From Lysobacter enzymogenes (lineage in GTDB: Bacteria > Pseudomonadota > Gammaproteobacteria > Xanthomonadales > Xanthomonadaceae): a DNA stretch of 32,000 bases. A program made the translations under genes and the position numbers. The stretch is from assembly GCF_023617245.1 (NCBI RefSeq), contig NZ_CP067396.1:6043271-6075270 (forward strand), given 5' to 3'. The notes below the pieces were generated by a model. The model was not told the origin of the DNA, ran no database searches, and was given only the letters and a program-made list of their open reading frames with translations. How positions within the stretch are numbered: position 1 is the stretch's first letter; every line of letters begins with the position of its first letter. Shown one piece after another: positions 4,730 through 21,305 of the stretch.

Positions 4730-4748
4730 AGATAAATACGCTGGCTTC

Positions 4749-4988
4749 ATGGATCTTGCTGCCAGCTTCGGCTCCGCCGTGCGACGACATCGGGAACTTC
4801 TCCGGCTCAGCCAAGAAGACTTGGCTGATCGCTCGGGGCTTGATCGCACTTACATCAGTGGCGTAGAGCGCGGCGTCAGAAATCCGACACTGCAAGTGAT
4901 GCAGAGGCTGGCGGACGCTCTTGGGGTGGATCTGGATGTGCTGTTTGCAACGGCCCGTGAGTGTGCGTCCGCCGGAGGAAAGAGCTGA
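4749..4988 (+). CDS. R-M controller (C) protein, XRE-family HTH
   Basis: 79 aa. RRHRELLRLSQEDLADRSGLDRTYISGVERGVRNPTLQVMQRLADALGV matches the C-protein consensus (SQE.LA...G..RTYIS..ERG.RNPTL). Its stop TGA at 4986-4988 overlaps the next ATG at 4988. Confidence 0.85.
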   Translation: MDLAASFGSAVRRHRELLRLSQEDLADRSGLDRTYISGVERGVRNPTLQVMQRLADALGVDLDVLFATARECASAGGKS

Positions 4989-5995
4989 TGCCATTTGTAG
5001 CTGATCCGGCAATCAACTGCGCCAACTGCCCATATGGAGAGTGCATCGAGGACCGCCGCGTTAACCGGGTGGCGAATAGAAATACTGAGTTCCGCCTGAA
5101 GCAGGCGACGATCCTGGGTTGTACCTTCGACTCCTTTGTACCCGGGTGCGACTCAGATCCAATGTCTGGTCGTGCGTTCGACGAATACATCGGACAGATG
5201 CGCGTCAATTCCAACGGCGCCGGCACCCAGAAATATGGCGCAGGATTCAAGCTAGCGATAAGCGCGGTCGCCAAGGTCGAGGGCGACGTGTTTGAACTGC
5301 TTGAAGCCGCCGCGCTTTGGAACGCAGCGGCCGCATGGAATCGCTTCATGGATAGCGGCCTCTGGGCCTCGCAATCATTCACGCAGCCTGTCGCATCCAT
5401 TGCGACTCCGGCGCGGAAGATCGCAATCGTTAAGCTTCCCAGGGGATACGACACAATTCGCCTGTTCAAACCGGAGGTTCAGGCGACTATTAGAGCGTTT
5501 GAGCATGCGATGCAATTGGCGGACATGACATTGGGGTTGTCTTCGCCCGACATAGTGGGCGTGCGGTTGCCGCATCCACTGCCTCCAGGGCTCGCCAAGT
5601 TCCTCGTTGATCTCCCCAATCTCAATGCTCAGAACGCCATCGGCCTGGAAGACGCCTATCGCTGCCTGGAAGGCCAGCTGGACAGCAGCGCCTTCCTGCT
5701 CGCGATCGCGGTCAAACGAACCACTCGGAGTGACCGGCTATACCAACCGCTATACGAAGCCACTGTTCTCAAGTTTCTTATTGAGTATGTGCTCCGGGGG
5801 GCAGCATTTCGCTTCTATGCCCACCTAGGTTCGTATGATGGAGCAAATGTCATTAAGGCTTATAAGTCTGGCTTGCTTACCTCACTTATTCGCGGTGGGA
5901 TGGGACAGAAAGCGGTCGACCAGCTTTACCATGCAGTTTCACCCAGGGCTACTGCACAGTCCATTCTTGATGACTTACCTAAGTTTCCAATTTAG
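4988..5995 (+). CDS. Type II restriction endonuclease, Cfr10I/NgoMIV/Bse634I-like (CCGG-core family)
   Basis: It is translationally coupled to the C gene (cTGATG). It has PD (5546-5551), then A-V-K with the K at D+55 (5708-5716), then E at K+14 (5756-5758). An R-S-D-R lies at K+4..K+7 (5726-5737). This spacing matches what I recall for NgoMIV K187 / R191-S-D193-R194 / E201. Confidence 0.65.
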   Translation: MPFVADPAINCANCPYGECIEDRRVNRVANRNTEFRLKQATILGCTFDSFVPGCDSDPMSGRAFDEYIGQMRVNSNGAGTQKYGAGFKLAISAVAKVEGDVFELLEAAALWNAAAAWNRFMDSGLWASQSFTQPVASIATPARKIAIVKLPRGYDTIRLFKPEVQATIRAFEHAMQLADMTLGLSSPDIVGVRLPHPLPPGLAKFLVDLPNLNAQNAIGLEDAYRCLEGQLDSSAFLLAIAVKRTTRSDRLYQPLYEATVLKFLIEYVLRGAAFRFYAHLGSYDGANVIKAYKSGLLTSLIRGGMGQKAVDQLYHAVSPRATAQSILDDLPKFPI

Positions 5996-6607
5996 TTACG
6001 CCTGATGAGAGAGGAGGTTCCGCCCCCTCTTGGCTGCGACCATGCTTGTTACGGGGACAGCTCATGCGCATGTCAAACCAAGTTGGACATAGCGCGAACT
6101 GGCGCGCCATATTCCCGGCGGGAAAGTTTCTCCGCCGTCCGCACGCCCCTCTGCAAGCCCCGTTACTGGCGGGTGTTTGCGAGGGGCGTTTGGTTTTGGG
6201 GGTTTCTGCTCCGCGCCGAAATGGCTGTTTCCTCTCTCCCTCCCACTTTTCTCCGGTCGGCTGGTGCTGAGGCCGAACGCTGGTGCGCGCAATGCGACAG
6301 AACCCAATGGATTGAGGGAGAGACGTCAACTCATATCTACTTCGCGCCATCCGCCTGGGGACGCATTGGAGCGTTGCCGTGGACGGCTCACGATCGCCGG
6401 TGCCGTTTGCCAGCCGCGACGACGCGGCAACTGCCGCTGGGGCGCAAGCGTGGCGGTTCTGTTGGTATCGAGGGCTGCCGACGTTGCTACGAGTCATGTG
6501 CCCGTACGGCACTTTCAAACGTACAGATCGCTACAAACAAAACATGCCGAATGAAATCGTGGTTGTGCCGTTAACAGACCGATCAACGGTCTCGCAGCGC
6601 GAGAGGC

Positions 6608-6636
6608 TTGCAAGCCACACTTCGCTGGAGAATGAT
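6608..6636 (+). promoter_or_regulatory. candidate sigma70-type promoter upstream of rhs
   Basis: TTGCAA (6608-6613), a 17-nt spacer, then AATGAT (6631-6636). Pattern match only. Confidence 0.2.
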
Positions 6637-6683
6637 GCGCGCAACCGCCACACGGAACCCGTGGTCCGGTTTCGCATCGACGC

Positions 6684-9600
6684 ATGGATCGTCCTCATAT
6701 CGACATGGAAACGTCCCGCCCTGCGCTCAGCCCACGCGGCTTCGAACGTCCTTCCAAGGTTGCTTCTCGCAGCCCGGCCTTCTCCCGCACCCTGGCTCGC
6801 ATTGGCGAGCTTCGCGCCTGCATTCTTCAAAAGGCATACACCGTGATAACACCCGCGAACGGAACGCAACCGGGCCCCGATGCGATAAGCAAGCGGCGCC
6901 CATCCCCACGCACCTCTTGGAGAACCGCCATCCTACGAGCGGCCTCGTTGGCACTGCTGGCTTGCGCTTCTTGGTCGGCTTCAGCCTGCGAAGAGACCTA
7001 TAGATACTCGGTCTACCCATCGCATCGCATTCTGGAAGGCACCTGCAAAACGCACGCAGAAGCGATGGCGGCTTGCAAAGCAACCGTTCAAGCCCTGGGG
7101 CATCCGGAGCATTGCACGTACACGCCATCCGCAGGCTGGCTGAACATAGGCGGGGGAAATTGGTACTTCGTCAAATACAGCGCCGACCCGCAAAACGCCC
7201 GGCCCGAAAAGAACATGGGCGCCCCAGATTGCCCGGGGCAATGCTTCGGCGACCCGATCAACGCCGGCAACGCCAACAAGTTCGAATCCAAGGTCGAGTA
7301 TCGCGGCGACGGCCCGTTCCCGCTGGAGTTTTCCTGGACCTACAACTATCTGCTGCTTTGGGACACCCTGCCCCCGAATGCGTACGTACTAGGGGGGAAT
7401 CGCACCTTCAACTATGGCAGCCGTGCCACACGCTGGGCCTTACCCACCGGAGCAGCCAGGGTTTTCATCTCCCGCCCGGACGGGAAGGTCGCCGCGTTCA
7501 AGAAACCCGCTTCCGGCAATGAATGGGTTCCCTATGCAAGCGTGACCACCCGCCTGCTCGAAACCCCTACCGGCTGGGAATACGAGGACGAAGACGGGCA
7601 CATCGAAGTCTTCGACAGCGCCGGCTTGTTGACGCAAATCCGTAGCCCGGATGGATATCGCCAACTGCTGACCTACGACTCTGCAGGCCGTCTGCAAACC
7701 GTGACCGACCCGCTAGGGCGTCAGCTCGGCTTCCAGTACAACGCGGCCAATCTGATTTCACAACTGGACCTGCCCGACGGACGAACGATCAAGCTTGCCT
7801 ACACACCGGAAAAGCGCCTCACTGTCGTCGAGTATCAGGACGGCACGAAGGTCAAGTACCTGTACGACGAAGTTGGATACATTGGCTCAAGCATGTACGT
7901 GACCGGCGCGCTCACCGGCGTGGAAGACGAATCGGGCGCTCGCTATTCCTCCACGCGCTACTCGGCAGATCGCGCGAAAGGCACCGAGCTGGCCGGCTCG
8001 TTGGACCAGTACACCTCGAGCTACACCAGCTCGGACAACGGCACCTTCATGACGTACGCCCAGATCGGGTTACCGTCGGGCGCATCCAGGAAGCTCAATC
8101 TCGCCAGCGTCAACGGACGAATAGTACCGACGAAGATCGTCACCGAGTGTTCCGGATGTACGCCGCGCACGGTCAGTTACACCTACGATCTCAACGGCCA
8201 CTACGATGTGATCAACGACAACGGCGTTGTAACCGACTACGACTACGACGCGCGCGGCCGCTTGCTGAAACAGGTGGAAGCCGCGAGCGACATCTCCGGG
8301 CTCCGTCGCACCACCCAAACCGACTGGCATGCGGATTTCCGCGTGCCGACAGCGCGCCGCGTCTACGATGCGAGCAATGCACTGGCGATCAACGAGACCT
8401 GGACCTACAACGCCCGCGGTCAGGCGTTGACACACAGTCAGCTAGACGTATCCGGAACCGCCCCGGCCAGAACGATTACGACCACCTACTGCGAACAGGC
8501 GGACGTCGATGCCGGTCGCTGCCCGGTTATCGGCCTGCCTACGCTGGTCGACGGACCACGAACGGATGTCGCCGATACGTTGAGCTACAGCTATTACGCG
8601 TCCGACGACAGCGGCTGCGCCACGGGGCCCAGCAGTTGCGACCACCGCAAGGGCGACGTGTGGAAGGCCACCAACGCACTAGGACACGTAGTTCTCGAAG
8701 CGCTGCGTTACAACGGCGCGGGCCAGTTGCTATCGTCCAAGAACTCCAACGACGTGGTCACGGATTACGAGTACCACGCGCGCGGATGGCCGACTGCGGT
8801 CAAGGTGCGTGGCTCCGACGACAGCGTCGAAACCGACGATCGGATCACCCGCATCGAATATCGCCCTACCGGTCTGGTCGAGCGGATCACCCTGCCCGAT
8901 GGCGACTACCTGCGTTATGCGTATGACGACGCGCATCGCCTGACCGACGTGTTCGACCAGGCGGGCAATACGGTGCATTACACCTTAGACGCGACCGGAA
9001 ACCGAAAGCAGGAGGACGTCAAAACCGTGTCCGGCACGCTGAAGCGCACCATGTCGCGCGTCTACAATCTCTACAACGAACTGAGCGCGATCAAGGACGC
9101 CTCGCAGAACGCGACCGGCTTCACGTACGACGCCCTGGGCAATCCAGACCGGACTACCGATGCGCTGGGCCGGATTACCGATCAGGATTACGATCCGCTC
9201 GGACGCTTGGTGCGCACCTTGCAGGACGTGGGCGGTTTGGAAGTCCAAACGGATGTTCGTTACAACGCGCGGGATCAGATCATCCAGGTGACCGACCCGA
9301 ACCGGTTGGCGACCCACTACCGCTACAACGGTTTCGGCGACCATATCCAGTTGGAAAGTCCCGACACCGGGATCACCGACTACACCTACGACGCCGCCGG
9401 CCAATTGGCGACCAAGAAAGACGCCAACGACGCGGCCGCGAACCGCTACACCTACGACGCGCTGGGTCGACCGAAGGCGATCTTCTACACCGCGACCGGC
9501 CCGGCCGATGTCGAGTACGACTACGACACGGTCAACACTGAATGCACCGCCGGGCAGACCTTTGCCCTGGGTCGCCTGACTGCGAGCCGGACCGAAGGCA

Positions 9601-11300
9601 ACGAGCTGAAATACTGCTACGACCGCTTCGGCCGGATCGTGCGCAAGGTCCAGATCGTCGCCGGCAGGAGCTTCACCCTGCAATACGCCTACACCCTGGG
9701 CGGCAGCCTGAGCGCCATCACTTATCCGGACGGCGTCGTCGTGGATTACGTTCGCGATGCCCAGTCCCGCATCAAGGAAATCGGGGTCCGGCCGAGTGGT
9801 GGCATCCGCACGACGCTCTTAAGCAATGCCACCTACGAACCGTTCGGGCCGGTGAGCGGCTGGACCTACGGCAACGGCCGTACTCTCAACCGCACTTACG
9901 ATCAAGATTACCGTCCGAAAACCATCCTGGACAGCGCCAGCGGCGGCTTGTCGCTGGGTTACGGCTACAACTCCGCCGGGGAATTGACCGAACTCAAGGA
10001 CGGTCTGCAAAGCACCCTTCAGGCAAAGTATGAATACGATACCTTGGGCCGATTGACGGTTACCCGAGACAGCGCGTCCAACGCACTGGACACCTACGGG
10101 TACGACAAAACCGGCAATCGCAAAAGCCTGCTGCATGGAGGCATTACCGACGCCTACGTCTATCCGGTCACCAGCCACCGACTGACCAGCGTGTCCGGCG
10201 TGCCGCGCGGTTACGATGCGGCAGGCAATACCGTCAGCATCGGCAGTACCGCCAAGGAGTTCGTCTACAACGCCAACGACCGTCTGAGCCAGTTCAAGCA
10301 AGGCGGCGCCATCAAGGCCAGCTACAGCTACAACGCGGCGGGCGAGCGGGTCGCGACCACGGGCGCGACGACGGCCGCGATCGATACGTACACCTTGTAC
10401 GACGAAGACGGTAGCTGGATCGGCGATTACAACAGTGCCGGTGCGGCCAAGCAGCAAGCCGTGTGGTTCGATAGCGTACCGGTCGGCCTGGTCATCGGCA
10501 GCGGCAGCACGCAGTCCCTACAGTATGTGCAGCCCGATCATTTGGGCACGCCACGCGCGGTGATTGATCCGGCCCGCAACGTTGCGATCTGGACGTGGGA
10601 TGCTAAGAGCGAGGCATTCGGTAACAGCCCGCCCAATCAAGATCCCGATCTAGACGGCACCGCATTTATGTTCAACATGCGGTTCCCGGGGCAGCGGTTC
10701 GACCCCGCTAGCGGACTCGTCTACAACTATTTCCGCGACTATGATCCAGGTACTGGCCGATATGTCCAAAGTGACCCGATTGGTTTGATTGGTGGGACAA
10801 GTACCTATATCTACGTTGGTGCCGCCCCATTGGCTTACGTCGATCCGCTCGGCCTTCAGGCAGGATGCCAGCCGACGGGACTGGCATGGTGTCAGCAAAA
10901 GTGCGCGGCGGCCGGACTGACCATGAAAGCGTGTGTTACTACGCCAGCACTTTTAGGTTTAGTCCGAGAAGAGCAATGCGATTGCGATGATAGCTGCCCG
11001 ATCGACAAATATGAAAATCCTGGGACCCATGACCCGTCAAATCGCGGAAGGAACCCCTACAATAGCACTAAGAGTAAACTCCCTACTGACCACGAGGATT
11101 TGTGGCGGCAGAGCAGAGCGGGACCAGATGGGAATCGATGGACCAAAGTCGGTAATGGAAAAAACGCCGAGTACCACCGCTTTCAGAATGACGGAAACGG
11201 TAACTGGCACTGGAACGGTTCGACATCGGGCAAGACTGCGAACGGCGCGCCACGTGCGATTAGAATCAATGACGTACCCAGTTCAGTTCAGAGGTGGTGA
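6684..11300 (+). CDS. full-length Rhs/YD-repeat polymorphic toxin with variable C-terminal toxin domain
   Basis: There are dozens of YD repeats (YDSAGRLQTV, YDALGNPDRT, YDPLGRLVRT, YDAAGQLATK and others). An N-terminal GDPINAGNANKFE plug-like segment is present. The Rhs core ends with DPIGL...VDPLGL at 10842-10856, followed by an AT-richer 147-codon tail. The start is ambiguous: ATG 6684, or GTG 6843 with AAGG 8 nt upstream. Confidence 0.93.
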   Translation: MDRPHIDMETSRPALSPRGFERPSKVASRSPAFSRTLARIGELRACILQKAYTVITPANGTQPGPDAISKRRPSPRTSWRTAILRAASLALLACASWSASACEETYRYSVYPSHRILEGTCKTHAEAMAACKATVQALGHPEHCTYTPSAGWLNIGGGNWYFVKYSADPQNARPEKNMGAPDCPGQCFGDPINAGNANKFESKVEYRGDGPFPLEFSWTYNYLLLWDTLPPNAYVLGGNRTFNYGSRATRWALPTGAARVFISRPDGKVAAFKKPASGNEWVPYASVTTRLLETPTGWEYEDEDGHIEVFDSAGLLTQIRSPDGYRQLLTYDSAGRLQTVTDPLGRQLGFQYNAANLISQLDLPDGRTIKLAYTPEKRLTVVEYQDGTKVKYLYDEVGYIGSSMYVTGALTGVEDESGARYSSTRYSADRAKGTELAGSLDQYTSSYTSSDNGTFMTYAQIGLPSGASRKLNLASVNGRIVPTKIVTECSGCTPRTVSYTYDLNGHYDVINDNGVVTDYDYDARGRLLKQVEAASDISGLRRTTQTDWHADFRVPTARRVYDASNALAINETWTYNARGQALTHSQLDVSGTAPARTITTTYCEQADVDAGRCPVIGLPTLVDGPRTDVADTLSYSYYASDDSGCATGPSSCDHRKGDVWKATNALGHVVLEALRYNGAGQLLSSKNSNDVVTDYEYHARGWPTAVKVRGSDDSVETDDRITRIEYRPTGLVERITLPDGDYLRYAYDDAHRLTDVFDQAGNTVHYTLDATGNRKQEDVKTVSGTLKRTMSRVYNLYNELSAIKDASQNATGFTYDALGNPDRTTDALGRITDQDYDPLGRLVRTLQDVGGLEVQTDVRYNARDQIIQVTDPNRLATHYRYNGFGDHIQLESPDTGITDYTYDAAGQLATKKDANDAAANRYTYDALGRPKAIFYTATGPADVEYDYDTVNTECTAGQTFALGRLTASRTEGNELKYCYDRFGRIVRKVQIVAGRSFTLQYAYTLGGSLSAITYPDGVVVDYVRDAQSRIKEIGVRPSGGIRTTLLSNATYEPFGPVSGWTYGNGRTLNRTYDQDYRPKTILDSASGGLSLGYGYNSAGELTELKDGLQSTLQAKYEYDTLGRLTVTRDSASNALDTYGYDKTGNRKSLLHGGITDAYVYPVTSHRLTSVSGVPRGYDAAGNTVSIGSTAKEFVYNANDRLSQFKQGGAIKASYSYNAAGERVATTGATTAAIDTYTLYDEDGSWIGDYNSAGAAKQQAVWFDSVPVGLVIGSGSTQSLQYVQPDHLGTPRAVIDPARNVAIWTWDAKSEAFGNSPPNQDPDLDGTAFMFNMRFPGQRFDPASGLVYNYFRDYDPGTGRYVQSDPIGLIGGTSTYIYVGAAPLAYVDPLGLQAGCQPTGLAWCQQKCAAAGLTMKACVTTPALLGLVREEQCDCDDSCPIDKYENPGTHDPSNRGRNPYNSTKSKLPTDHEDLWRQSRAGPDGNRWTKVGNGKNAEYHRFQNDGNGNWHWNGSTSGKTANGAPRAIRINDVPSSVQRW

Positions 11301-11770
11301 TGGCTATCTTCGCTGGAGATAAGTCGACGTTTGCCATCGAGGCGAGCATTGACAAGAGGGACGGACCGCCCTTCGGCAACGTACGAATATGGCTGAGCGG
11401 CAATTATGTTGGCGCCTATGAGGACCAAGTTCCGATTTTAACTTTTCTTTCAAGAATGAAACGGCTCCTTGATCTTAACATCGACACTGACGGCGCTTTC
11501 TTAAAGTCGAACGAAGCATTTTATAATGCTGTTATGGATGGAACGATGGAGGATGGCGATAGATATCGGCTCGGACTAGGCGAGTCTTTCGATGATTTCT
11601 CGCTCATCGGATTTCTAGATGACAAGCTCATTCGAATCATCTGGATTTTGCATGACGACCCTTTCTTTCAGTATCCGAACTATCCGACAGGACTTCAGAG
11701 CGCAACGATCTCAGTAGATCTCTTTCGATTTGTCGTCGACCAATTCGAGAGTTCTGTAAGAAGTAGCTGA
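11300..11770 (+). CDS. putative cytoplasmic immunity protein for the main Rhs C-terminal toxin
   Basis: Its ATG overlaps the rhs TGA by 1 nt (TGATG). It is AT-richer than the rhs core, has no signal peptide and is acidic. Its position is typical of an rhs immunity gene. No family recognised with confidence. Confidence 0.7.
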   Translation: MAIFAGDKSTFAIEASIDKRDGPPFGNVRIWLSGNYVGAYEDQVPILTFLSRMKRLLDLNIDTDGAFLKSNEAFYNAVMDGTMEDGDRYRLGLGESFDDFSLIGFLDDKLIRIIWILHDDPFFQYPNYPTGLQSATISVDLFRFVVDQFESSVRSS

Positions 11771-11794
11771 TGGATGATTATTTTTATATATTCG

Positions 11795-11822
11795 AGGCCC
11801 CGGCAACGGGGCCTTTCTTTTT
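11795..11822 (+). terminator. rho-independent terminator / cassette-boundary hairpin, copy 1
   Basis: AGGCCCCG-GCAA-CGGGGCCT followed by TTCTTTTT. Confidence 0.7.
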
Positions 11823-11864
11823 ACTCGCTCCTGCAGTATTGACCTGCGCTGTTCCCACAGTTGA

Positions 11865-13064
11865 CTGTTACACGGCGGCATCACCGATGCCTACGTTTAC
11901 CCTACCACCAGCCACCGGCTGAGCAGCGTGGCCGGCGTGGCGCGTGGTTACGACACGTCCGGCAACACCACCAGCATCGGCGCTGCCAAGGAGTTCGTCT
12001 ACAACGCTAACGATCGGTTGAGCCAGTTCAAACAGGCCGGCGTCACCAAGGCCAGCTACCGCTACAACGCGAATGGCGAACGGATCGCGACCACGGGTGC
12101 GACGACGACCATGATCGACACGTACACGTTGTACGACGAGGACGGCCACTGGATCGGCGATTACGACAGCACCGGCGCGGCCAAGCAGCAGGCCGTGTGG
12201 TTCGGCAACGCGCCGGTCGGTTTGGTGGTCGGCGGCGGTAGCACTCAGACCCTGCATTACGTGCAGCCGGACCATTTGGGCACGCCGCGCGCGGTCATCG
12301 ACCCGAGTCGCAATGTCGCCATCTAGACCTGGCACGCCAAGAGCGAGGCGTTCGGCAACAGCCCGCCGAATCAGGACCCGGATCTGGACGGCACCGCGTT
12401 CGTGTTCAACATGCGGTTCCCAGGGCAGCGTTATGAATCGAACACCGGACTGGTATATAACTATTTCCGCGACTATGACCCAGCCATAGGGCGCTACATT
12501 CAGAGTGACCCAATCGGATTGTCTGGAGGCATTAGCAGCTACACTTACGCATACTCCAGCCCTCTTGAGCTATCCGACCCATTTGGATTGAGGCCTGGCG
12601 ATTGCTATCGCAGCCCTGATATCGCAGCTGCAAACGCGATTGTCGAATCACTCCCATTGTCTCAAAAAAATAACTGGGAGTATGGCAGCTGGATATATAG
12701 AACAAAAAATGGCTACTATTCATACATGGAACCTCGAACTAGCTATGACGATGAGTATGTAAACTCGGGAGACCCGCCTCCGGGCGTCGTATCACTTGGA
12801 AAATGGCATACTCACGCTCGGGAGCCCTATCCTGCAAAGCCAGTTCGGGAAACTCTTTCTGGAGGCGACATACAGATACCTTATGGTCAACTCGCATGGA
12901 TAGGCACCCCTTCCGGGAAAATACTTAGATACAGCAGCATGGGTAGAGGAGATGCTGTGCCACTGCCCAGACCTTCGCCGAACAATCAAGATGCATGCGA
13001 TTGCAACGCGCCCAGAGAAAAGAGCATTACCGAAAAAATAATGGAATTCCTAGGCATTAACTGA
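11865..13064 (+). pseudogene. orphan rhs C-terminal cassette 1 (DUF4329-like toxin), interrupted by an in-frame TAG
   Basis: Homology to main rhs codons (LHGGITDAY...) starts directly after a TGA at 11862-11864, so there is no N-terminal part. An in-frame TAG at 12324-12326 sits where the paralogs have TGG (IWTW). The core ends with DPFGL at 12576-12590. The tail EYGSWIYRTKNGYYSYMEP...GVVSLGKWHTH resembles DUF4329. Confidence 0.8.
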
Positions 13065-13073
13065 GAGCTGACA

Positions 13074-13409
13074 ATGAAAATCGCCATGAATGCAGCGATC
13101 ACGGCACTGATTCTCGCGTCTTTCACCCCAATGCGAGTCGGAGCGAGCGAGCCGCCCGCCCGCTTGATAAAAGCCGCCGAGATCGCCATATCGTCATATT
13201 CCAAAAATATCTCTGAAAGGCACACAGCGCCTGGCAGAGATGGCGATTACATGCGAGACATAAATAGCTACGACGTAGGTATAAGTCAGAATTCAAAGCA
13301 TTTTGTATTCATTTTCTTAGTGCGCAACAAAAATTTCTCCGGCGGTGGCGGAGAAATTTGGGTATCAAAGGAAAGCTTGAAAGTGGAAAGAACTTCCAAC
13401 TATTTTTAG
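13074..13409 (+). CDS. putative exported immunity protein for orphan cassette 1
   Basis: It starts 9 nt after the toxin stop. The N-terminal signal peptide is MKIAMNAAITALILASFTPMRVGASE. It is AT-rich and 111 aa long. Confidence 0.6.
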   Translation: MKIAMNAAITALILASFTPMRVGASEPPARLIKAAEIAISSYSKNISERHTAPGRDGDYMRDINSYDVGISQNSKHFVFIFLVRNKNFSGGGGEIWVSKESLKVERTSNYF

Positions 13410-13451
13410 CGCATGCCTCTTGACTAAAATCAGGTAAGTGATGCGCATAAG

Positions 13452-13477
13452 AAAGGCCCCGGCAACGGGGCTTTTTT
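13452..13477 (+). terminator. rho-independent terminator / cassette-boundary hairpin, copy 2
   Basis: AAAGGCCCCG-GCAA-CGGGGCTTTTTT. Confidence 0.7.
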
Positions 13478-14099
13478 GGGCCAAGGCGACACCACCGATC
13501 GCAGCTGCTCCTGTCGTTGTCGGCCGAAGGAACGCGACCTCGCATCCCCGAGCGCTCCGACGACGGCGCTAGCGCTGAGTCCATGCGCCCAAGCCTCGCC
13601 AGTTCATCCTGCAGGTCATAGGTGATGTCGGCCAAGCCACGCACTTCGATTGCGGACTCCGACTGGATGTGGGCGGTGCGTACGCTCGACACGAGCGCCA
13701 CATCGACGGGACGGAAAGCCTCCGCCTCCCGAGTCTTGGCATCAGCCATCAACGCGTGGCCGAGCATGACGCGCTTACGCGACGACCGGCGTGCTGACGG
13801 CGCCGGCTCAAGTCGCTCCTCCCGCTAGCCGCAGATCCAGCCGATGTCGGCGCAGAGTTTCAGTAGCTTCGCCTCGAGGCTGTCGCGTAGGACGGTCACC
13901 TTGAGCGTCCAGACCGCTCGTCGCGGTTGATTGCGCTCCATGTTCTTCAATGTTGCTTCGTGCTCGTAGTTGACCAGCGAACACGATGGGGTCAGGTCGG
14001 CGGGAGCTCAAGCGCTTTCGCGATGCTGTGACGGTGGTGATGGTCGTGACGGTGCATCCCGACCTTTACCTACGCGCGAAAACGGAGGTATATCCGTAG

Positions 14100-16865
14100 G
14101 TGCGCCCCGCCCACCGCCGCGCAGTCGTCGATACGTTAAGCTACCGCTACTACGCGTCGGACGACAGCGGCCGTGCCTCCACGCCCAGCAACTGCGGCCA
14201 TCGCAAGGGCGACCTGTGGAAAACCACTAACGCGCTAGGTCAGGTAACCCTGGAAGCGCTGCGTTACAACGGCGCAGGCCAGTTGCTATCGTCCATGAAC
14301 TCTAACGGCGTGGTCACGGATTACGAGTACCAAGCGCGCGGATGGCCGATTGCGGTCAAGGTGCGTGGCTCCGACGACAGCGCCGAGACCGACGATCGGA
14401 TCACCCGCATCGACTACAGCCCTACCGGTCTGGTCGAGCGGATCACCCTGCCCGATGGCGACTACCTGCGTTATGCGTATGACGACGCGCATCGCCTGAC
14501 CGACGTGTTCGACCAGGCGGGCAACACGCTGCATTACACCCTCGACGCGACCGGAAACCGAAAGCAGGAAGACGTCAAAACCGCATCTGGCACGCTAAAG
14601 CACACCATGTCGCGCGTCTACAATCTCTACAACGAACTGAGCGCGATCAAGGACGCTTCGCAGAACGCGACCGGCTTCACGTACGACGCCCTGGGCAATC
14701 CGGACCGGACTACCGATGCGCTGGGCCGGGTCACCGACCAGGATTACGATCCGCTCGGGCGGCTGGTGCGCAGTCTTCAAGACACCGGAGGACTGGAAGC
14801 CCAGACGGATGTCCGCTACAACGCGCGGGATCAGATCATCCAGGTGACCGACCCGAACCGTTTGGCGACCCACTACCGCTACAACGGTTTCGGCGACCAT
14901 ATCCAGTTGGAAAGTCCCGACACCGGGATCACCGACTACACCTACGACGCCGCCGGCCAATTGGCGACCAAGAAAGACGCCAACGACGCGGCCGCGAACC
15001 GCTACACCTACGACGCGCTGGGTCGACCGAAGGCGATCTTCTACACCGCGACCGGCCCGGCCGATGTCGAGTACGACTATGACACCGTCAATAGCGAGTG
15101 CACCGCTGGGCAAACCTTCGCCCAGGGTCGCTTGACCGGGAGTCGGACCGAAGGCAACGAGCTGAAGTACTGCTACGACCGCTTCGGACAGGTCGTGCGC
15201 AAGGTGCAGATCGTCGCGGGCAAGAGCTTCACGCTGCAGTACGCTTACACGCCAGGCGGCAAACTGAGCGCGGTCACCTACCCCGATGGCGCCATGGTCG
15301 ATTACGTCCGGGACGCACAAGCCCGTATCAAGGAAATCGGGGTCCGGCCGAGTGGTGGCATCCGCACGACGCTCTTAAGCAATGCCACCTACGAACCGTT
15401 CGGGCCGGTGAGCGGCTGGACCTACGGTAACGGCCGCGTCCTGAGCCGTACCTACGATCAGGATTATCGTCCCAAGACCATCCTGGATAGCGCCAGCGGT
15501 GGCTTGTCGTTGGGCTACGGCTACAACACAGTCGGCGAACTGGCCGAACTCAAGGATGGCCTCCAAAGCGCGGTCCAAGCCAAGTACGACTACGACACGC
15601 TCGGCCGGCTGACGGTTACCCGTGACGGCACATCCAACGCGCTAGACACCTACGGGTACGACAAGACCGGCAATCGCACGAGTCTGACCCACGGCGGCAT
15701 TACCGATGCCTACGCCTATCCCCTGCCCAGCCACCGGCTGAGCAACGTGGCCGGCGTGGCACGCGGTTACGACGCGGCCGGCAACACCACCAGCATCGGC
15801 GGTACCGCCAGGGAATTCGTCTACAACGCCAACGACCGGCTGAGCCAGTTCAAGCAGGCCGGCGCCATCAAGGCCAGCTACCGCTACAACACAGCGGGCG
15901 AGCGGGTCGCGACCACGGGCGCCACGACGACGACGATCGATACATACACGCTGTACGACGAGGACGGCAACTGGATCGGCGATTACGACAGCACCGGTGC
16001 GGCCAAGCAGCAGGCCGTGTGGTTCGGCAGCGCGCCGGTCGGCCTGGTCATCGGCAGCGGCAGCACGCAGACCTTGCACTATGTGCAGCCGGATCATCTG
16101 GGCACACCGCGCGCGGTCATCGACCCGAGCCGCAACGTCGTCATCTGGAATTGGGACGCCAAGAGCGAGGCGTTCGGCAACAGCCCGCCGAACCAAGACC
16201 CGGATCAGGACGGCACCGCGTTCGTGTACAACATGCGGTTCCCGGGGCAGCGTTTTGATGCAGCAAGCGGATTGGTCTACAACTATTTCCGAGATTACGA
16301 TCCGAGCACCGGGCGGTATATACAAAGCGATCCGATAGGATTGCAGGGCGGAGCCAGCACATATGGGTATGCGGAAAGCAATCCGCTTTCTAGGATTGAT
16401 CCGTATGGCTTGCTTTCCTATCTCTGTCAGAAAGGCAAAAACATAGGAATTGCATTGCCCATCTACTTCACAGGGGGAAAAGCCGCTGACTACCAGCGTA
16501 TAGCTGGCGCGATCGAAAAGGCGTGGTCGAAGAGCTTTGGACCCTGGTATAACGTAAAGTTAAAGGTACTAATCCAGAGCAAGCCCACGACGTCAGCCAA
16601 CTTCGTCAAGATAATTCCAGGACAGCAAGACTCATGGGTGCTTGATGAAGGGGTCAAGACCTTTTTTGGAAAATGGTCACAAACCCCTTACCATTCAGAT
16701 GACCGAGACTACGCTCATGAAGCAGGCCATTTAATGGGAATTGATCATAACCCGACCCGAAGCCTGATGGATATTTATGCAACAGAGCCGGAGCCAACTA
16801 TCAATGACCTCGAGGAACTACTTGAGAGCGATGCAAACAGGCGCGTCTGTGGTTGCGAAAAATAG
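14100..16865 (+). CDS. 5'-truncated Rhs protein with metzincin-type zinc-metallopeptidase C-terminal toxin
   Basis: It is colinear with main rhs 8571-10856 at a constant offset of 5556 nt with no indels. GTG 14100 is preceded by GGAGG (14084-14088) and an in-frame TAG (14097-14099). The core ends with DPYGL at 16398-16412. The tail contains HEAGHLMGIDH (16716-16748), which is HExxHxxGxxH. Confidence 0.85.
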   Translation: MRPAHRRAVVDTLSYRYYASDDSGRASTPSNCGHRKGDLWKTTNALGQVTLEALRYNGAGQLLSSMNSNGVVTDYEYQARGWPIAVKVRGSDDSAETDDRITRIDYSPTGLVERITLPDGDYLRYAYDDAHRLTDVFDQAGNTLHYTLDATGNRKQEDVKTASGTLKHTMSRVYNLYNELSAIKDASQNATGFTYDALGNPDRTTDALGRVTDQDYDPLGRLVRSLQDTGGLEAQTDVRYNARDQIIQVTDPNRLATHYRYNGFGDHIQLESPDTGITDYTYDAAGQLATKKDANDAAANRYTYDALGRPKAIFYTATGPADVEYDYDTVNSECTAGQTFAQGRLTGSRTEGNELKYCYDRFGQVVRKVQIVAGKSFTLQYAYTPGGKLSAVTYPDGAMVDYVRDAQARIKEIGVRPSGGIRTTLLSNATYEPFGPVSGWTYGNGRVLSRTYDQDYRPKTILDSASGGLSLGYGYNTVGELAELKDGLQSAVQAKYDYDTLGRLTVTRDGTSNALDTYGYDKTGNRTSLTHGGITDAYAYPLPSHRLSNVAGVARGYDAAGNTTSIGGTAREFVYNANDRLSQFKQAGAIKASYRYNTAGERVATTGATTTTIDTYTLYDEDGNWIGDYDSTGAAKQQAVWFGSAPVGLVIGSGSTQTLHYVQPDHLGTPRAVIDPSRNVVIWNWDAKSEAFGNSPPNQDPDQDGTAFVYNMRFPGQRFDAASGLVYNYFRDYDPSTGRYIQSDPIGLQGGASTYGYAESNPLSRIDPYGLLSYLCQKGKNIGIALPIYFTGGKAADYQRIAGAIEKAWSKSFGPWYNVKLKVLIQSKPTTSANFVKIIPGQQDSWVLDEGVKTFFGKWSQTPYHSDDRDYAHEAGHLMGIDHNPTRSLMDIYATEPEPTINDLEELLESDANRRVCGCEK

Positions 16866-17304
16866 TCTAGCTATTGCGCTTATCCTCATCGCATCGGGAT
16901 GCAAGGATGAGAAACGCGACGAATTTGTTATCAGTGACCGATTTTCCCTCTGCGCACCAAACGAGGAAATTATTTCAACATCACTCAAAAATGGCATCGA
17001 CGCAACAAAAGGCGATATCTGGATCGGTCGCGACAAGGCCGAAATCGTCATTGATGCGCATCCATACTACCCACTGCGCGAAAAAGTTAAATCACACGAG
17101 AATGCCAAGCCTGGAATTACCCACATAGACTCGGGCAGATATACTTTCCCCTCGGGACCGGGAGAGAGGGAGTTCAACCTGTCCACTTATCGCCTTGAAG
17201 ATGGCAGGACTATTTTCATAGTCCTCTCCGGGGCATCAGATAATACAACCCGCGAATCGCTCATAAATATTCAAAATAAACTATGCCCCTGCGGGAGCTG
17301 TTAA
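16831..17304 (+). CDS. putative lipoprotein immunity protein for the metallopeptidase toxin
   Basis: MQTGASVVAKNSLAIALILIASGC has a lipobox-like ASG-C. It overlaps the rhs 3' end by 35 nt and is AT-rich. The start is uncertain: ATG 16804, ATG 16831 or GTG 16849. Confidence 0.6.
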   Translation: MQTGASVVAKNSLAIALILIASGCKDEKRDEFVISDRFSLCAPNEEIISTSLKNGIDATKGDIWIGRDKAEIVIDAHPYYPLREKVKSHENAKPGITHIDSGRYTFPSGPGEREFNLSTYRLEDGRTIFIVLSGASDNTTRESLINIQNKLCPCGSC

Positions 17305-17327
17305 CGATAGATCCATCTCTAAAAAAA

Positions 17328-17354
17328 GGCCTCGGCAACGGGACCTTTCTTTTT
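17328..17354 (+). terminator. cassette-boundary hairpin, copy 3 (degenerate)
   Basis: GGCCTCG-GCAA-CGGGACC followed by TTTCTTTTT. Relative to the other copies it has one mismatch and one G:U pair. Confidence 0.5.
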
Positions 17355-17371
17355 GTGCTGTAGCTACAGAA

Positions 17372-19477
17372 GTGATCGCCGCTGTTCGCAGGCTCTACAA
17401 CGAACTGAGCGCGATCAAGGACGCCTCGCAGAACGCCACTGGCTTCACATACGACGCCCTGGGCAATCCGGACCGGACTACCGATGCGCTGGGCCGGATC
17501 ACCGATCAGGATTACGATCCGCTCGGACGCTTGGTGCGCACCTTGCAGGATGTGGGCGGTTTGGAAGTCCAAACGGATGTTCGTTACAACGCGCGGGATC
17601 AGATCGTCCAGGTCACCGATCCCAACCGACTGGCGACCCACTATCGTTACAACGGTTTCGGCGACCAGATCCAGTTGGAGAGTCCCGACACCGGGACCAC
17701 CGACTACACCTACGATACCGCCGGCCAGTTGGCGACCAAGAAAGACGCCAACGACGCGGCCGCGAACCGCTACACCTACGACGCGCTGGGTCGACCGAAG
17801 GCGATCTTCTACACCGCGGCGGGTCCGGCCGATGTCGAGTACGACTACGACACTGTCAACACCGAATGCATCGCCGGGCAGACCTTCGCCCAGGGTCGCC
17901 TGACCGCGAGCCGGACCGAAGGCAACGAGTTGAAGTACTGCTACGACCGCTTCGGACACGTCGTGCGCAAGGTGCAGATCGTCGCGGGCAAGAGCTTCAC
18001 GCTGCAGTACGCCTACACGCCGGGCGGCAAACTGAGCGCGGTCACCTACCCCGATGGCGCCATGGTCGATTACGTCCGGGACGCACAAGCCCGTATCCAG
18101 GAGATCGGAGTCCAGCCGACTGGTGGCGCCCGCACGGTGCTGTTGAACAATACGACCTACGACCCGTTCGGTCCGGTGACCGGCTGGACCTATGGCAACG
18201 GTCGCGTCCTGAGCCGCACATACGATCTGGACTACCGGCCCAAGACCGTCTTCGATGCCGCCAGCGGCGGCTTGTCGCTGGGTTACGGCTACAATTCCGC
18301 CGGCGAATTGACCGAGCTTAAGGACGGTCTGCAGAGCAACCTCCAGGCCAAGTACGACTACGATACGCTCGGCCGGTTGACGGTTACCCGTGACGGCGCC
18401 TCTAACGCGCTGGACACCTATGGGTACGACAAGATCGGAAATCGCACGAGCCTGGCTCATGGCGACATTACCGATACCTACGCTTACCCCTTGACCAACC
18501 ACCGACTGAGCAGCGTGGCCGGTGTGGCGCGCGGTTACGACGCGGCCGGCAACACCACCAGCGTGGGAGGTAACGCCAAGGAATTCGTCTAGAACGCCAA
18601 CGACCGACTGAACCAGTTCAAGCATGCCGGCGTGATCAAGGCAAGTTATCGTTACAACGCCATCGGTGAGCGCGTTGCAACCACTGGCGGCACAATCGGC
18701 GTCGTCCATACCTACACGCTATATGACGAAGCCGGCCACTGGATCGGCGATTACGACAGCACCGGCGCGGCCAGGCAGCAGGCCGTGTGGTTCGACGATG
18801 CACCAGTCGGCGTGGTGGTTGGCAGTGGTGGCGCGCAGGCGCTGCACCATGTACAGCCGGACCATCTGGGTACGCCGCGCGCAGTCATCGATCCCAGCCG
18901 CAATGTTGCAGTCTGGACCTGGGATGCCAAGAGCGAGGCATTCGGCAATAGCCCGCCGAACCAAGACCCAGATCAGGACGGCACCGCATTCGTGTTCGAT
19001 ATGCGGTTCCCGGGGCAGCGACTCGATGTCGTAAGCGGATTATTTTACAACTACCATCGCGATTACGACTCATCTGTCGGCCGTTATGTTCAATCTGATC
19101 CGATCGGTCTCACGGGTGGAATTCTTCTGTATGGCTATAGCTGGAGCAGCCCACTTATCAATAGCGATCCCTTTGGTCTGCAGCCGGCCAACACCGTAGT
19201 TTGCGGAACAGATGGCAAACTAGTCGTAAAAGTCGATAGCGGCCAATCAGAGTACTGCGGGCTGAAGGAGTGTCTCATTAGACACGAAGAATGCCACGCG
19301 AAGGAAATGAGCGAAGATAAGAATATCGTGGAATTCTGCTCGACCCCTGGCAACGCGAACAAATCCATCTATATCGACTGGAAGCAGAAACAGGCCTTGG
19401 AACTTACAGGAACTCAGGCCGAGCTGGACTGCCTGAATAAAAAGCAAAAAAAGAAGATTACACTTGCAGAAAAGTAA
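17372..19477 (+). pseudogene. orphan rhs C-terminal cassette 3 (small Cys-rich HExxH tail), interrupted by an in-frame TAG
   Basis: It is colinear with main rhs 9069-10856 at a constant offset of 8324 nt. An in-frame TAG at 18590-18592 sits where the paralogs have TAC (EFVYNAND). The core ends with DPFGL at 19166-19180. The 98-codon tail has six Cys and HEECH (19283-19297). Confidence 0.8.
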
Positions 19478-19562
19478 TAAACGAACGCATTAAAAAGATC
19501 CAACAAAATCGCAATGCCTGTGAGTCAGATGAAAAAAATGCGTATTCAAATGAGGCGATCCT

Positions 19563-20042
19563 ATGAAGCCAATAGCGCTCCTTCTCCCGCTCTGTCTTTT
19601 GACATCTGAAGTCACGGCCAGCCCAAAATTCACGATGGCCGTGGATTCGAATATTGATCGAAAAGCAGGTGACGCGGAGTTGACGTTCAATCTCACTTTA
19701 TCCGGCCCCAACCCTGTCGCTGTGGCTAGGAGTTCGATTCCAGGCGTCCAAAAGAATGCCATATGGACAAGCGCGGAATATTTCCCAAATTATGGGGAAA
19801 AATATCGTCCTTGCCCAAAACCAAAGGAAAAAATTGAGATCAACGACGGACTCCTCGGCACCACCACAATTAAGCCGGGACAGTCGTTTCAGCAGAAAAT
19901 GAAACTTTCAGATTTGTATTTTAATGCCAATGAGATCGTAGGAAAATGCGATCTAGTCTTGTTCTGGACCTACAAGCCAGAACTCGAATCAGGCGAACAT
20001 ACCGAGCGACTTGCTGGAGCGGTCGTCATAACAGCCGAGTAG
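19563..20042 (+). CDS. putative exported immunity protein for orphan cassette 3
   Basis: The signal peptide is MKPIALLLPLCLLTSEVTASP. GAGG lies ~9 nt upstream. It is AT-rich and a paralog of 20368-20865. Confidence 0.6.
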   Translation: MKPIALLLPLCLLTSEVTASPKFTMAVDSNIDRKAGDAELTFNLTLSGPNPVAVARSSIPGVQKNAIWTSAEYFPNYGEKYRPCPKPKEKIEINDGLLGTTTIKPGQSFQQKMKLSDLYFNANEIVGKCDLVLFWTYKPELESGEHTERLAGAVVITAE

Positions 20043-20086
20043 CTTCGTTTCGGCCAGGCCTCATGGTACTTACGGTGATAGTCCAA

Positions 20087-20109
20087 GGCCCCGACAACGG
20101 GGCCTTTTT
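20087..20109 (+). terminator. rho-independent terminator / cassette-boundary hairpin, copy 4
   Basis: GGCCCCG-ACAA-CGGGGCC followed by TTTTT. Confidence 0.7.
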
Positions 20110-20121
20110 AGCCGCCATTGA

Positions 20122-20340
20122 CACCTAATCGCTGAAACCGGCAACTGGATCAGCGATTACGACAGTACCGGAGCAGCCAAGCAGCAAATCGCGTGGCTCG
20201 GCAATCCGCCGGTCAGCTTCGTGGTCGGCAGCGGCGGCACGCAGACGTCGTGGTATGTACAGCCGGATCATCTGGGTATGCGACGAGCGGTCGTCGATCC
20301 CAGCCGCAACATCGCCATCTGGACCTGGGATGCAATGTGA
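20122..20340 (+). pseudogene. rhs core remnant without a toxin domain
   Basis: It translates to ETGNWISDYDSTGAAKQQIAWLGNPPVSFVVGSGGTQTSWYVQPDHLGMRRAVVDPSRNIAIWTWDAM*. This is homologous to the other copies (DGNWIGDYDSTGAAKQQAVWF...IWTWDAKSEAFGN). Homology stops at WDA and a TGA follows. Confidence 0.75.
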
Positions 20341-20367
20341 GGAAGACCCAAAGGACTGTAACTTCAA

Positions 20368-20865
20368 ATGAGCCATCACATGAAATGGACAGCACTGTTG
20401 ACCGCCCTTGCCCTCTCGATGCCCGCGGGAGGAACCGAGAGGCCTGAATTCGAAATTACTGTTGCACAAGAAGTGGGCGCCAAGGCAGGCGATGCGACCC
20501 TACATTTCGATCTGTCGTATAACGGCCAGCAACCAGTAAGAATCAGAGCTAGCTCGGTACCGGGCACACAGGATACTGCAATATGGATACTGGCCGAGCG
20601 CTTCCTCGACATTGGATCGAGCACTCGGGGCGACTGCCCGAGGCTGAAAGAAATAATCTTCATTGATGATGGGAAGCTGGGCAGTACGACAATCCATCCC
20701 GGGCAGCACATCAAACAGTCGATCAAGCTCTCCGATCGATATTCAAACACGGCGCAAGTAGTTGGGAAATGCGACACTGTTGTGTTCTGGAGTTATAAGC
20801 CAGATAAAGAGACCGGCGACAGTCAGCGCGTGTCCGGAGCAATTCTGTTGCCCGGCGCACATTAA
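20368..20865 (+). CDS. orphan exported immunity-protein paralog with no adjacent toxin
   Basis: A signal peptide (MKWTALLTALALSMPAGG) is present. It aligns along its length with 19563-20042, for example KAGDATLHFDLSYNG vs KAGDAELTFNLTLSG and VVGKCDTVVFWSYKPD vs IVGKCDLVLFWTYKPE. The start is ATG 20368 or 20380. Confidence 0.6.
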   Translation: MSHHMKWTALLTALALSMPAGGTERPEFEITVAQEVGAKAGDATLHFDLSYNGQQPVRIRASSVPGTQDTAIWILAERFLDIGSSTRGDCPRLKEIIFIDDGKLGSTTIHPGQHIKQSIKLSDRYSNTAQVVGKCDTVVFWSYKPDKETGDSQRVSGAILLPGAH

Positions 20866-20907
20866 AATTGTGAATATCTGAACAATCGTTCAATCCAGAT
20901 ACAAGGC

Positions 20908-20941
20908 AAGGGAGGGGGTTTATCGCCCTCCCTTTTGCTTT
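20908..20941 (+). terminator. rho-independent terminator closing the rhs array
   Basis: AAGGGAGGG, a 9-nt loop, CCCTCCCTT, then TTGCTTT. It differs from the four internal hairpins. Confidence 0.7.
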
Positions 20942-21305
20942 ATGACTCTGTGCAATAGCTGATGTTGTCCAGCGTTAACCACGCGACCTGAACGCTGTGC
21001 GGAGACCGGGCAAAAACTTCTCCACTTGTCCGGACATCGATCCGGGTCGGCGCTCCCGCCGGCAGCAATAAATTGAATTTCCCTCCAAGCATCGCGATAT
21101 CTGCTGCGCCAAATAGATGGTTGAATTCCATATCGCAAGCGGCCAGAAAATGCTGAATCCATCACAATCCCAGTAGAAATGAATACACGGGTACGCATTC
21201 GTGATCACCGGGGCTGGCTAGACTCGCTATCGAGGCTGCCAACACCGGAGATCCTCTAACCGCGAGCCGATCGCGGCTCGCGTCACGCAGACCATTGGAG
21301 GGTGT

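Follow-up and report, generated by a model that had tools for sequence, protein, structure and literature searches.

Orphan rhs modules and their recombination have been documented in enterobacteria, where the rhs loci of Salmonella Typhimurium, E. coli and Dickeya (PMC3967940; PMC3150448) consist of a full-length rhs gene and, behind it, 5'-truncated core fragments that differ from one another in toxin tail and immunity gene. The cores of these loci are GC-rich and the tails AT-richer, the boundary between the two is marked by the motif PxxxxDPxGL, and tails are swapped by homologous recombination. Here we describe a chromosomal locus of Lysobacter enzymogenes that is built in the same manner. 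It is an Rhs polymorphic-toxin array with four toxin tails (T1-T4) and five open reading frames (ORFs) in the immunity position (I1-I5), and it occupies 6.7-20.9 kb of a 32,000-nucleotide stretch (contig NZ_CP067396.1, positions 6,043,271 to 6,075,270), the whole of which we refer to as the window. The enterobacterial proteins are effectors of the PAAR/VgrG type VI secretion system (T6SS) with mostly cytoplasmic nuclease tails, whereas the full-length protein of the Lysobacter array carries a predicted Sec signal and exported immunity proteins accompany three of its four tail types. We read the locus as one deployable weapon together with an archive of displaced or acquired toxin ends, an explanation to which, taken as a whole, we assign a probability of roughly three in four.

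Several other systems bear on this reading. Bcn-A of Xanthomonas perforans is an Rhs bacteriocin that is found in the supernatant and depends on the type II secretion system (T2SS) gene xpsD (PMC7259588). Judged by its description, it resembles the Lysobacter system in being an Rhs-family toxin from the same bacterial order with a downstream immunity gene whose product is predicted to be membrane-located; it differs in needing accessory ORFs 2-4, counterparts of which were not recognised in the Lysobacter array, and no orphan array has been described for it. In Salmonella Dublin the PAAR-Rhs-M91 toxin encoded with its partner as SED_RS06335/SED_RS06340 is toxic only in the periplasm (PMC13556075). 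Like VgrG2b of P. aeruginosa (PMC6899460), it combines a zinc-metallopeptidase toxin and periplasm-only toxicity with a periplasm-facing immunity protein encoded immediately downstream, the arrangement that we predict for part of the Lysobacter array. Both of these toxins are T6SS-delivered, however, and their peptidases belong to the M91 family and the VgrG2b-type zincins, whereas T3 is a metzincin resembling snapalysin and the matrix metalloproteinases (MMPs), with a lipoprotein as its immunity candidate, and T4 is unclassified. The catalogue of Zhang et al. (2012; PMC3482391) lists RHS toxins with signal peptides (Sec/T2SS), RHS-linked JAB and zincin toxins, and Imm65, an immunity protein for Tox-JAB-1 that carries a signal peptide as well as a lipobox. 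In the terms of that catalogue T2 is a Tox-JAB-2 domain and T1/I1 probably fits the Ntox18/Imm42 pairing, whereas T3 and T4 match no Pfam Tox-MPTase model and I2, I3 and I4/I5 match no catalogued immunity family; for the MPTase toxins the catalogue lists no immunity partner.

The array contains one full-length rhs gene (Rhs1), three 5'-truncated copies (orphan A, Rhs2 and Rhs3), one toxin-less stub and the five immunity-position ORFs, all of which are intact (Table 1). Searches against Pfam place RHS repeats and the RHS core domain in the ORFs at 6684-11300, 14100-16865, 17372-18592, 18632-19477 and 11928-12326, with expectation (E) values for PF05593 (RHS_repeat) of 5e-53 in Rhs1, 8e-40 in Rhs2 and 1e-31 in Rhs3, and comparison of the window with itself reveals that the 3' part of the Rhs1 core is present four more times, at 78-88% identity. 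The motif DP[LFY]GL occurs at 10842-10856, 12576-12590, 16398-16412 and 19166-19180, in all four cases in a PxxxxDPxGL context. A second motif, DPIGL, lies 23 codons upstream, and it is at this upstream motif that nucleotide homology between the cores ends. By GC fraction, the cores (0.61-0.63) stand above the tails (0.45-0.54) and the immunity ORFs (0.46-0.54). Pairwise comparison found no similarity among T1-T4. A hydrophobic core of the signal type is present at the N-terminus of four of the five immunity ORFs, in I3 together with a lipobox; I1 has neither.

A first-pass annotation of this stretch, made without database searches, had proposed an Rhs array with four unrelated tails, and the RHS domain matches, the motifs and the tail comparison agree with that proposal. 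Domain matches and self-comparison likewise recover the full-length rhs, the 921-codon 5'-truncated rhs, the toxin-less remnant and the five ORFs in the immunity position that it had listed, and sequence patterns confirm its signal peptide or lipobox in four of the five immunity candidates. Of the two orphan C-terminal cassettes that it described, orphan A stands, while the other proved to be a 5'-truncated rhs of 1.7 kb (17393-19119). Its placement of the switch from core to tail exactly at DPxGL holds for the coordinates and for the shift in GC content, and needs correction for the homology, which ends ~50-60 nt earlier (for example at 10773-10795). Where it had left two tails without a family, matches in curated libraries are absent for three, and after the analysis below T4 alone remains unassigned.

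Table 1. Features of the Rhs array and, in the last five rows, of its left flank (coordinates are those of the window)
Feature	Position	Strand	Description
Rhs1	6843-11300	+	Only full-length rhs, 1485 codons; RHS repeats, core and tail T1; likely start GTG 6843
Predicted Sec signal peptide of Rhs1	6843-6986	+	MITPANGTQPGPDAISKRRPSPRTSWRTAILRAASLALLACASWSASA then CEE; sequence reading and PROSITE-style lipobox pattern search
Core-end (autocleavage-type) motif of Rhs1	10842-10856	+	PxxxxDPLGL; upstream DPIGL at 10773-10787
Tail T1	10857-11297	+	Cys-rich linker (7 Cys) and ~95-aa toxin domain
I1	11300-11770	+	Immunity protein for T1; no signal peptide, cytoplasmic; putative distant Imm42 relative
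Orphan A	11865-13064	+	665-bp core fragment, TAG at 12324-12326, tail T2
Core copy in orphan A	11865-12529	+	80% identical to 10128-10795
Tail T2	12591-13061	+	Tox-JAB-2/DUF4329; PF14220 match
I2	13074-13409	+	Exported immunity candidate for T2, 111 aa; signal peptide MKIAMNAAITALILASFTPMRVGA
Strain-specific block	14002-21060	+	~7.06 kb with Rhs2/I3, Rhs3/I4, remnant and I5; absent from CP110813.1 and CP040656.1 (blastn)
Rhs2	14100-16865	+	921-codon 5'-truncated rhs, intact, without N-terminus or signal peptide; core 14124-16343
Core copy in Rhs2	14124-16343	+	88% identical to 8568-10787
Tail T3	16413-16862	+	Mini-metzincin Zn peptidase; HEAGHLMGIDH (H102, E103, H106, G109, H112), Met-turn M119
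I3	16831-17304	+	Lipoprotein immunity candidate for T3; MQTGASVVAKNSLAIALILIASG then C; lipobox LIASG/C; overlaps 3' end of T3
Rhs3 pseudogene	17372-19566	+	5'-truncated core 17393-19119, stop 18590-18592, frameshifted tail T4
Core copy in Rhs3	17393-19119	+	84% identical
Tail T4	19181-19474	+	Cys-rich, invariant HExCH, truncated in the window copy; no Pfam/PDB match
I4	19563-20042	+	Exported immunity candidate for T4; signal peptide MKPIALLLPLCLLTSEVTA
Toxin-less rhs core remnant	20134-20333	+	~78% identical to other cores
I5	20380-20865	+	Orphan exported immunity protein, cognate to deleted T4-family toxin; paralogue of I4
DUF2924 gene	left flank, within 1-6100		
Large serine recombinase	1103-2455		
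Vsr	2935-3357		
C5 cytosine methylase	3358-4593	-	
Cfr10I/Bse634I-type restriction endonuclease	4961-5995		

Comparison with two further genomes of the species shows the displacement of a tail directly and fits the orphan model developed for Salmonella and E. coli (PMC3967940; PMC3150448). In CP040656.1 there is a single Rhs protein, of 1648 amino acids, whose full-length gene bears T2 (DUF4329) and is followed by I2; in CP110813.1 and in the window, T1 and I1 are on the full-length gene and T2 and I2 form an orphan. As far as about position 9500 the window is 98-100% identical to CP040656.1; from there identity falls to 74-86% through the end of the core, and the T1 module therefore came with ~1.3 kb of foreign core, displacing the old end. 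CP110813.1 matches the window from 6101 to 14002 at 97.6% and resumes at 21060 (blastn), so that the block between these points is a strain-specific extension of a shared locus. The segment 20334-21363, comprising I5 and the right flank, is matched at 96% by an independent Logan contig (L016). To the left of the block, the GC-rich segment 13410-14002 corresponds by homology to the 3' part of a gene that the other strains carry on the minus strand (238-279 amino acids, no Pfam match); in the window this gene breaks off at 14002, where the 7-kb cassette block interrupts it. Positions 13614-13775 of the segment are 75% like the sequence that, in the other strains, comes just past the breakpoint, a likeness that hints at an internal repeat at the junction.

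The mechanical ORF of Rhs1 begins at ATG 6684. Single-base indels at ~6668 and ~6833 distinguish the three strains, and their reading frames diverge upstream of ~6840. Because the indels in CP040656.1 and CP110813.1 change the frame, we take the stretch upstream of ~6840 to be non-coding, and ATG 6684 was rejected as the start for the same reason. The true start is most likely GTG 6843, which is preceded by AAAGG and is the first start codon in the frame common to all three strains. The protein read from this codon would open with a Sec signal peptide that has a positively charged n-region, a hydrophobic core and an ASA/C site, all conserved in the three strains; lipobox-like cysteines at residues 41 and 49 possibly denote a lipobox. 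The Rhs protein of Lysobacter sp. CA196 likewise has a signal peptide. Rhs1 showed no PAAR, DUF6531 or other T6SS-docking domain; elsewhere in the 32-kb window PAAR was likewise not found, and searches of the flanking ORFs turned up no vgrG, eag/eagR, hcp or other T6SS component. Rhs1 thus has, by a heuristic call, the N-terminal signal peptide on a full-length toxin that characterises the Sec/T2SS-type RHS class, and it has neither the VgrG-docking domain nor, within the window, the linked vgrG, eagR or hcp genes of a T6SS-dependent Rhs effector. The signal peptides of Rhs1 and of the CA196 protein argue against T6SS loading and point towards the Sec/T2SS RHS class (PMC3482391). Since Rhs2 lacks an N-terminus and orphan A and Rhs3 are degenerating, Rhs1 alone is exportable; it is the only deployable protein of the array, and the remaining cassettes are silent or decaying.

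The ~130 codons that follow the signal peptide of Rhs1 (6899-7298) encode a small, Cys-containing N-terminal domain that is ~81-92% identical to those of the two other strains, against 98-100% for the flanking core. The domain forms a second polymorphic patch, at the N-terminus, and is possibly a receptor-binding module.

For the last ~95 residues of T1, the tail currently carried by Rhs1, 24 relatives were found, located C-terminally on Rhs, PT-HINT, PT-VENN, CdiA-orphan, Moraxella and Acinetobacter proteins. The toxin domain reads YENPGxHD...KS...YHRFQNDGNGNWHWNG, and the residues Y52, E53, N54, G56, H58, K72, S73, S86, W95, R108, F109, N114, H118 and W119 are invariant. No match was found in Pfam, NCBIfam or the PDB with the single sequence, nor with a profile against the PDB. 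An AlphaFold2 model reached a mean predicted local distance difference test (pLDDT) score of 87; its fold matches were not significant (best E 0.17), and small RNase toxins are over-represented among the weak ones, namely HigB/HigB2, Cupriavidus CdiA-CT, BrnT and RelE.

I1 matches Imm42 (PF15593) with an E value of 0.008 and 17.1 bits, under the curated cutoff of 27.2, and four out of four members of the I1 family match Imm42 weakly and no other family. Homologues of I1 lie directly downstream of T1 homologues in Chitiniphilus, behind a CdiA orphan of A. baumannii and in a metagenome (L013, L014, L015). The catalogue couples Imm42 to Ntox18, for which it predicts a two-histidine RNase activity and lists conserved H, S and H residues and an occurrence on HINT, RHS and FilH proteins (PMC3482391). 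The description of Ntox18 suits T1, in which H58, S73/S86 and H118 are invariant and whose hosts include RHS, PT-HINT, PT-VENN and CdiA-orphan proteins, and T1 is thus probably an Ntox18-like two-histidine RNase, matched to that family by description. An assignment of T1 to the HNH nucleases of the 'GHH' type was rejected: several members have T or Q in place of the first histidine of GHHD, matches to HNH families were absent, and the model does not have the beta-beta-alpha-metal fold.

The first 50 residues of T1 (10857-11006) hold seven cysteines spaced C..C...C....C....CDC...C and are common only to the Rhs-linked relatives P0003, P0004 and P0013. This part is modelled as a helix and hairpin with a pLDDT of ~66-80 and may be a separate pre-toxin or translocation module. 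An orphan module that pairs a toxin of the T1 type with an immunity protein of the I1 type lies in A. baumannii (L014, 1-3387) behind a CdiA-like protein of 4940 amino acids with a WHH nuclease tip; the T1/I1-type pair therefore circulates between Rhs and contact-dependent inhibition (CDI) systems.

Orphan A is interrupted by an in-frame TGG>TAG change at 12324. Its tail T2 matches PF14220 with 39.0 bits against a gathering cutoff of 28.6 (E 8.6e-10), a family (DUF4329) that corresponds to Tox-JAB-2 (PMC3482391); a single-sequence search of the PDB gave no match. Reading the sequence against the motif E, H[ST]H, S, D published for this family (PMC3482391), we find E30, H73-T74-H75, S90 and D93 retained. 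I2 is identical in three L. enzymogenes genomes and had no Pfam match at E<=5; it belongs to no recognised family. In Lysobacter sp. 1R34A a homologue of I2 with 56% identity and a signal peptide stands downstream of an orphan DUF4329 tail. The surroundings of that homologue (L017, 1-7384) form a second Lysobacter Rhs array, which runs from a full-length Rhs bearing DUF6531 at its N-terminus through a small ORF and an ankyrin-repeat protein (likely an immunity protein) to the orphan DUF4329 tail and the exported I2 homologue.

The protein encoded by Rhs2 is 100% identical to an annotated L. enzymogenes RHS protein (P0001), and its tail is T3. An exhaustive HMMER search for T3 returned 40 representative relatives, all of them C-terminal domains and several of them situated behind DPxGL on Rhs proteins of >1000 amino acids. 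The family consensus is AYxCxxGxNIGIxxPIxF...WTGxFGxYNV...HEAGHLMGLxD...IM...CGC, and among 31 sequences of the family H102, E103 and H106 are invariant and G109 and M119 nearly so; Cys5 and the C-terminal CGC are conserved as well. A single-sequence search of the PDB found no match, and a profile of the family matched snapalysin with an E value of 6.5e-5, followed by MMPs and karilysin. The AlphaFold2 model (pLDDT 93.4, predicted template modelling score 0.89) retrieved snapalysin (4hx3) in Foldseek with an E value of 1e-5 and a probability of 1.0, the latter shared by MMP-1 and karilysin. Individual members of the family score against the M7, M10 and M12 models, but none of the curated families M7, M10, M12 or Tox-MPTase was matched at its gathering score, the window copy reaching 15 bits at best; the best curated match among the 31 members was to Peptidase_M7, with an E value of 3e-5 and under the cutoff. 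Motifs, profile and fold therefore identify T3 as a minimal snapalysin-like metzincin outside the curated families. Lipoproteins or exported proteins related to I3 follow T3 homologues in the metagenomic loci L011 (29% identity), L012 and L010, and an unrelated lipoprotein follows the T3 homologue in L006.

Rhs3 is a pseudogene by virtue of an in-frame Tyr>stop change at 18590-18592 and of a frameshift in the A-runs of its tail at ~19437-19454. Beyond the tail start at 19181 and past this frameshift, the shifted frame continues like the longer tail of Lysobacter sp. CA196, and once repaired it would end at TGA 19564-19566, overlapping the ATG of I4. The T4 family is known from five loci (the window, Lysobacter sp. 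CA196, a Dokdonella metagenome-assembled genome, one metagenome contig and the Logan contig L016), in each of which it lies behind an Rhs core. Wherever downstream sequence was examined the tail is followed by a homologue of I4/I5, and those checked have a signal peptide (including L004, L005 and L007). Across four members of the family the motif H-E-x-C-H (with H43, E44 and H47), an E further downstream and six cysteines are invariant, E86 being a possible third ligand, and zincin activity is plausible from the motif. T4 gave no match in Pfam, against PDB profiles or in a single-sequence PDB search. A relationship between T3 and T4 was rejected, as hhalign aligns the motif only (probability 0.4%). 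I4 and I5 are paralogues with 47% identity. The contig L016 shares the I5 junction and has there a core end and a complete T4-family tail, ~600 bp of which are missing from the window; the remnant before I5 is a ~600-bp deletion derivative of a T4-family toxin.

Word-indexed protein searches had been run alongside these. With all tails concatenated, the search returned T1 relatives, one T2 relative and T3's own protein; this search and one with T4 only, which returned nothing, missed T4's own ORF (P0033), although that ORF is present in the database, and a search with the concatenated immunity proteins gave zero matches although I2, I4 and I5 are in the database. Because known members of the database were missed, the negatives of the word-indexed searches are no evidence of rarity.

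The locus as a whole can be accounted for as follows. Rhs1 would be made with a Sec signal peptide and so bypass PAAR and the T6SS; its YD-repeat shell would enclose the C-terminal tail, with release at the PxxxxDPxGL site, and T1, the predicted RNase that is the current tail, would be neutralised in sibling cells by cytoplasmic I1. The 3' rhs fragments downstream would have been displaced or separately acquired, each with its own tail and immunity gene. Having no N-terminus, they would not be exportable and could be re-armed by homologous recombination with the Rhs1 core, while their immunity genes would keep their value independently. The JAB-type metallohydrolase T2, the metzincin T3 and T4 (HExxH, Cys-rich) would act in the periplasm or envelope of the target, a site that we infer from their cognate immunity proteins being exported or lipid-anchored; the one tail with a cytoplasmic partner is T1. 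The pairs T1-I1, T2-I2, T3-I3 and T4-I4/I5 are conserved as cognate pairs, with the immunity gene downstream of the tail in other genomes, and in the window toxins have decayed with immunity retained, through stops, a frameshift and the deletion of the toxin upstream of I5. The extracytoplasmic targets put forward in the first-pass annotation gain support from the recurrence of exported I2, I3 and I4/I5 beside homologous tails in other genomes, from metallo-hydrolase motifs in T2, T3 and T4, and from the conserved cysteines of T3 and T4, which suit an oxidising compartment. Its remark that such targets are unusual for Rhs toxins is a fair one, though they are not new, as precedents exist (PMC3482391; PMC7259588; PMC13556075).

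A number of points weigh against this account. Signal peptides were called heuristically, from hydrophobicity and sequence patterns, instead of with SignalP or LipoP; an Rhs protein released through Sec/T2SS would still have to cross the outer membrane of its target; and export of the immunity proteins could serve to protect the producer's own periplasm and need not mark where the toxin acts in the target. The fold matches of T1 fall short of significance and its likeness to Ntox18 is one of description, I2 does not match Imm-NTF2 (family 2), the reported partner of Tox-JAB-2, and the assignment of T4 as a peptidase derives from a motif of five residues. What the analysis shows is the anatomy of the locus, its homologies, the fold of T3, the conservation of the toxin-immunity pairs and the exchange of a tail between strains; the secretion route, toxicity, protection, site of action, substrates and passage through the target's outer membrane are deduced.

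One competing explanation concerns the delivery route, namely that Rhs1 is a T6SS effector carried on a VgrG/PAAR encoded elsewhere and that periplasmic immunity mirrors T6SS delivery into the periplasm. L. enzymogenes does possess a T6SS and a PAAR-Rhs-AHH effector, Le1893 (PMC11762177), and periplasmic immunity proteins are common partners of T6SS effectors (PMC6899460; PMC13556075); Rhs1, however, has no PAAR or DUF6531-type N-terminus, a Sec-type signal peptide kept in three strains is incompatible with loading onto a spike in the cytoplasm, and vgrG, eag and hcp were not found within 32 kb, all of which make this route unlikely. Slightly less probable again is the view that the small exported ORFs are not immunity genes and encode secreted proteins or lipoproteins with no relation to the toxins, or factors for accessory functions or delivery, with T2-T4 directed at eukaryotes such as fungi, amoebae or nematodes and so requiring no immunity. 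Lysobacter preys on fungi and other eukaryotes, the L. enzymogenes Rhs protein Le1893 harms yeast, no immunity family is listed for Tox-MPTase1-5 (PMC3482391), and Bcn-A needs accessory ORFs. Against this, the ORF families keep to their own tail families even in distant taxa, where they lie immediately downstream and often overlap, and the persistence of intact I5 after deletion of its toxin and of intact I4 beside a decaying one is the pattern of immunity genes, not of delivery factors.

The first-pass annotation had raised the possibility of an assembly artefact of collapsed or duplicated repeats, and mis-joined rhs repeats are a further way in which one could arise. The locus is indeed rich in repeats, the 14002-21060 block is seen whole in one genome only, and the T4 frameshift falls within A5/A7 homopolymer runs, where sequencing errors typically arise. 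Yet the core copies differ from one another by 12-22% (78-88% identity) and have different truncation points, unlike collapsed or duplicated reads; both ends of the array are reproduced in other assemblies, by CP110813.1 on the left and by the Logan contig on the right; and the cassette proteins were annotated consecutively by NCBI as QQQ01285-QQQ01291. An artefact was rejected on the strength of the divergent copies and the reproduced ends, and we hold it to be very improbable.

In keeping with the reading of one deployable weapon and its archive, the locus gives the 'orphan archive' model of Rhs a clean example from nature, with tail displacement caught in three strains of one species and a toxin deletion sparing immunity caught by means of a fourth sample. 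All of its architectural elements have precedent, and the strain series is unusually explicit on displacement, decay and immunity retention. T3/I3 and T4/I4-I5 are new as members, being absent from curated libraries, and would add two uncatalogued pairs, a metzincin with a lipoprotein and a Cys-rich HExxH domain with an exported partner, to the envelope-targeting polymorphic toxins. The locus further points to Sec-dependent, non-T6SS delivery of Rhs proteins in a biocontrol genus. The substrates of the toxins, if identified, could reveal new vulnerable targets in the periplasm; current understanding is not overturned. A bolder proposal, which we advance tentatively and at well below even odds, is that the Sec-signal (possibly lipid-anchored) Rhs proteins of Lysobacter and Dokdonella constitute a T6SS-independent delivery system for envelope-acting toxins, in which the mini-metzincin T3 with its lipoprotein inhibitor family and the disulfide-rich HExxH domain T4 with the periplasmic inhibitor family I4/I5 would be two undescribed toxin-immunity families acting on new periplasmic substrates.

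The left flank of the array (window 1-6100; Table 1) is a mobile or defence island, and homology with the other strains begins only at 6101. The corresponding position is occupied by BrxC/PglY-, DUF4007- and NYN-type genes in CP040656.1 and by UbiA and adhesin genes in CP110813.1; given this difference in content among strains, the rhs locus abuts a variable defence hotspot. No tRNA was found at the island border. On the far side of the array, 24559-25443 and 30970-31869 (minus strand) are ~70% identical to each other and belong to paralogous genes that each encode a subtilase (Peptidase_S8) together with a P-domain, which are typical secreted proteases of Lysobacter.

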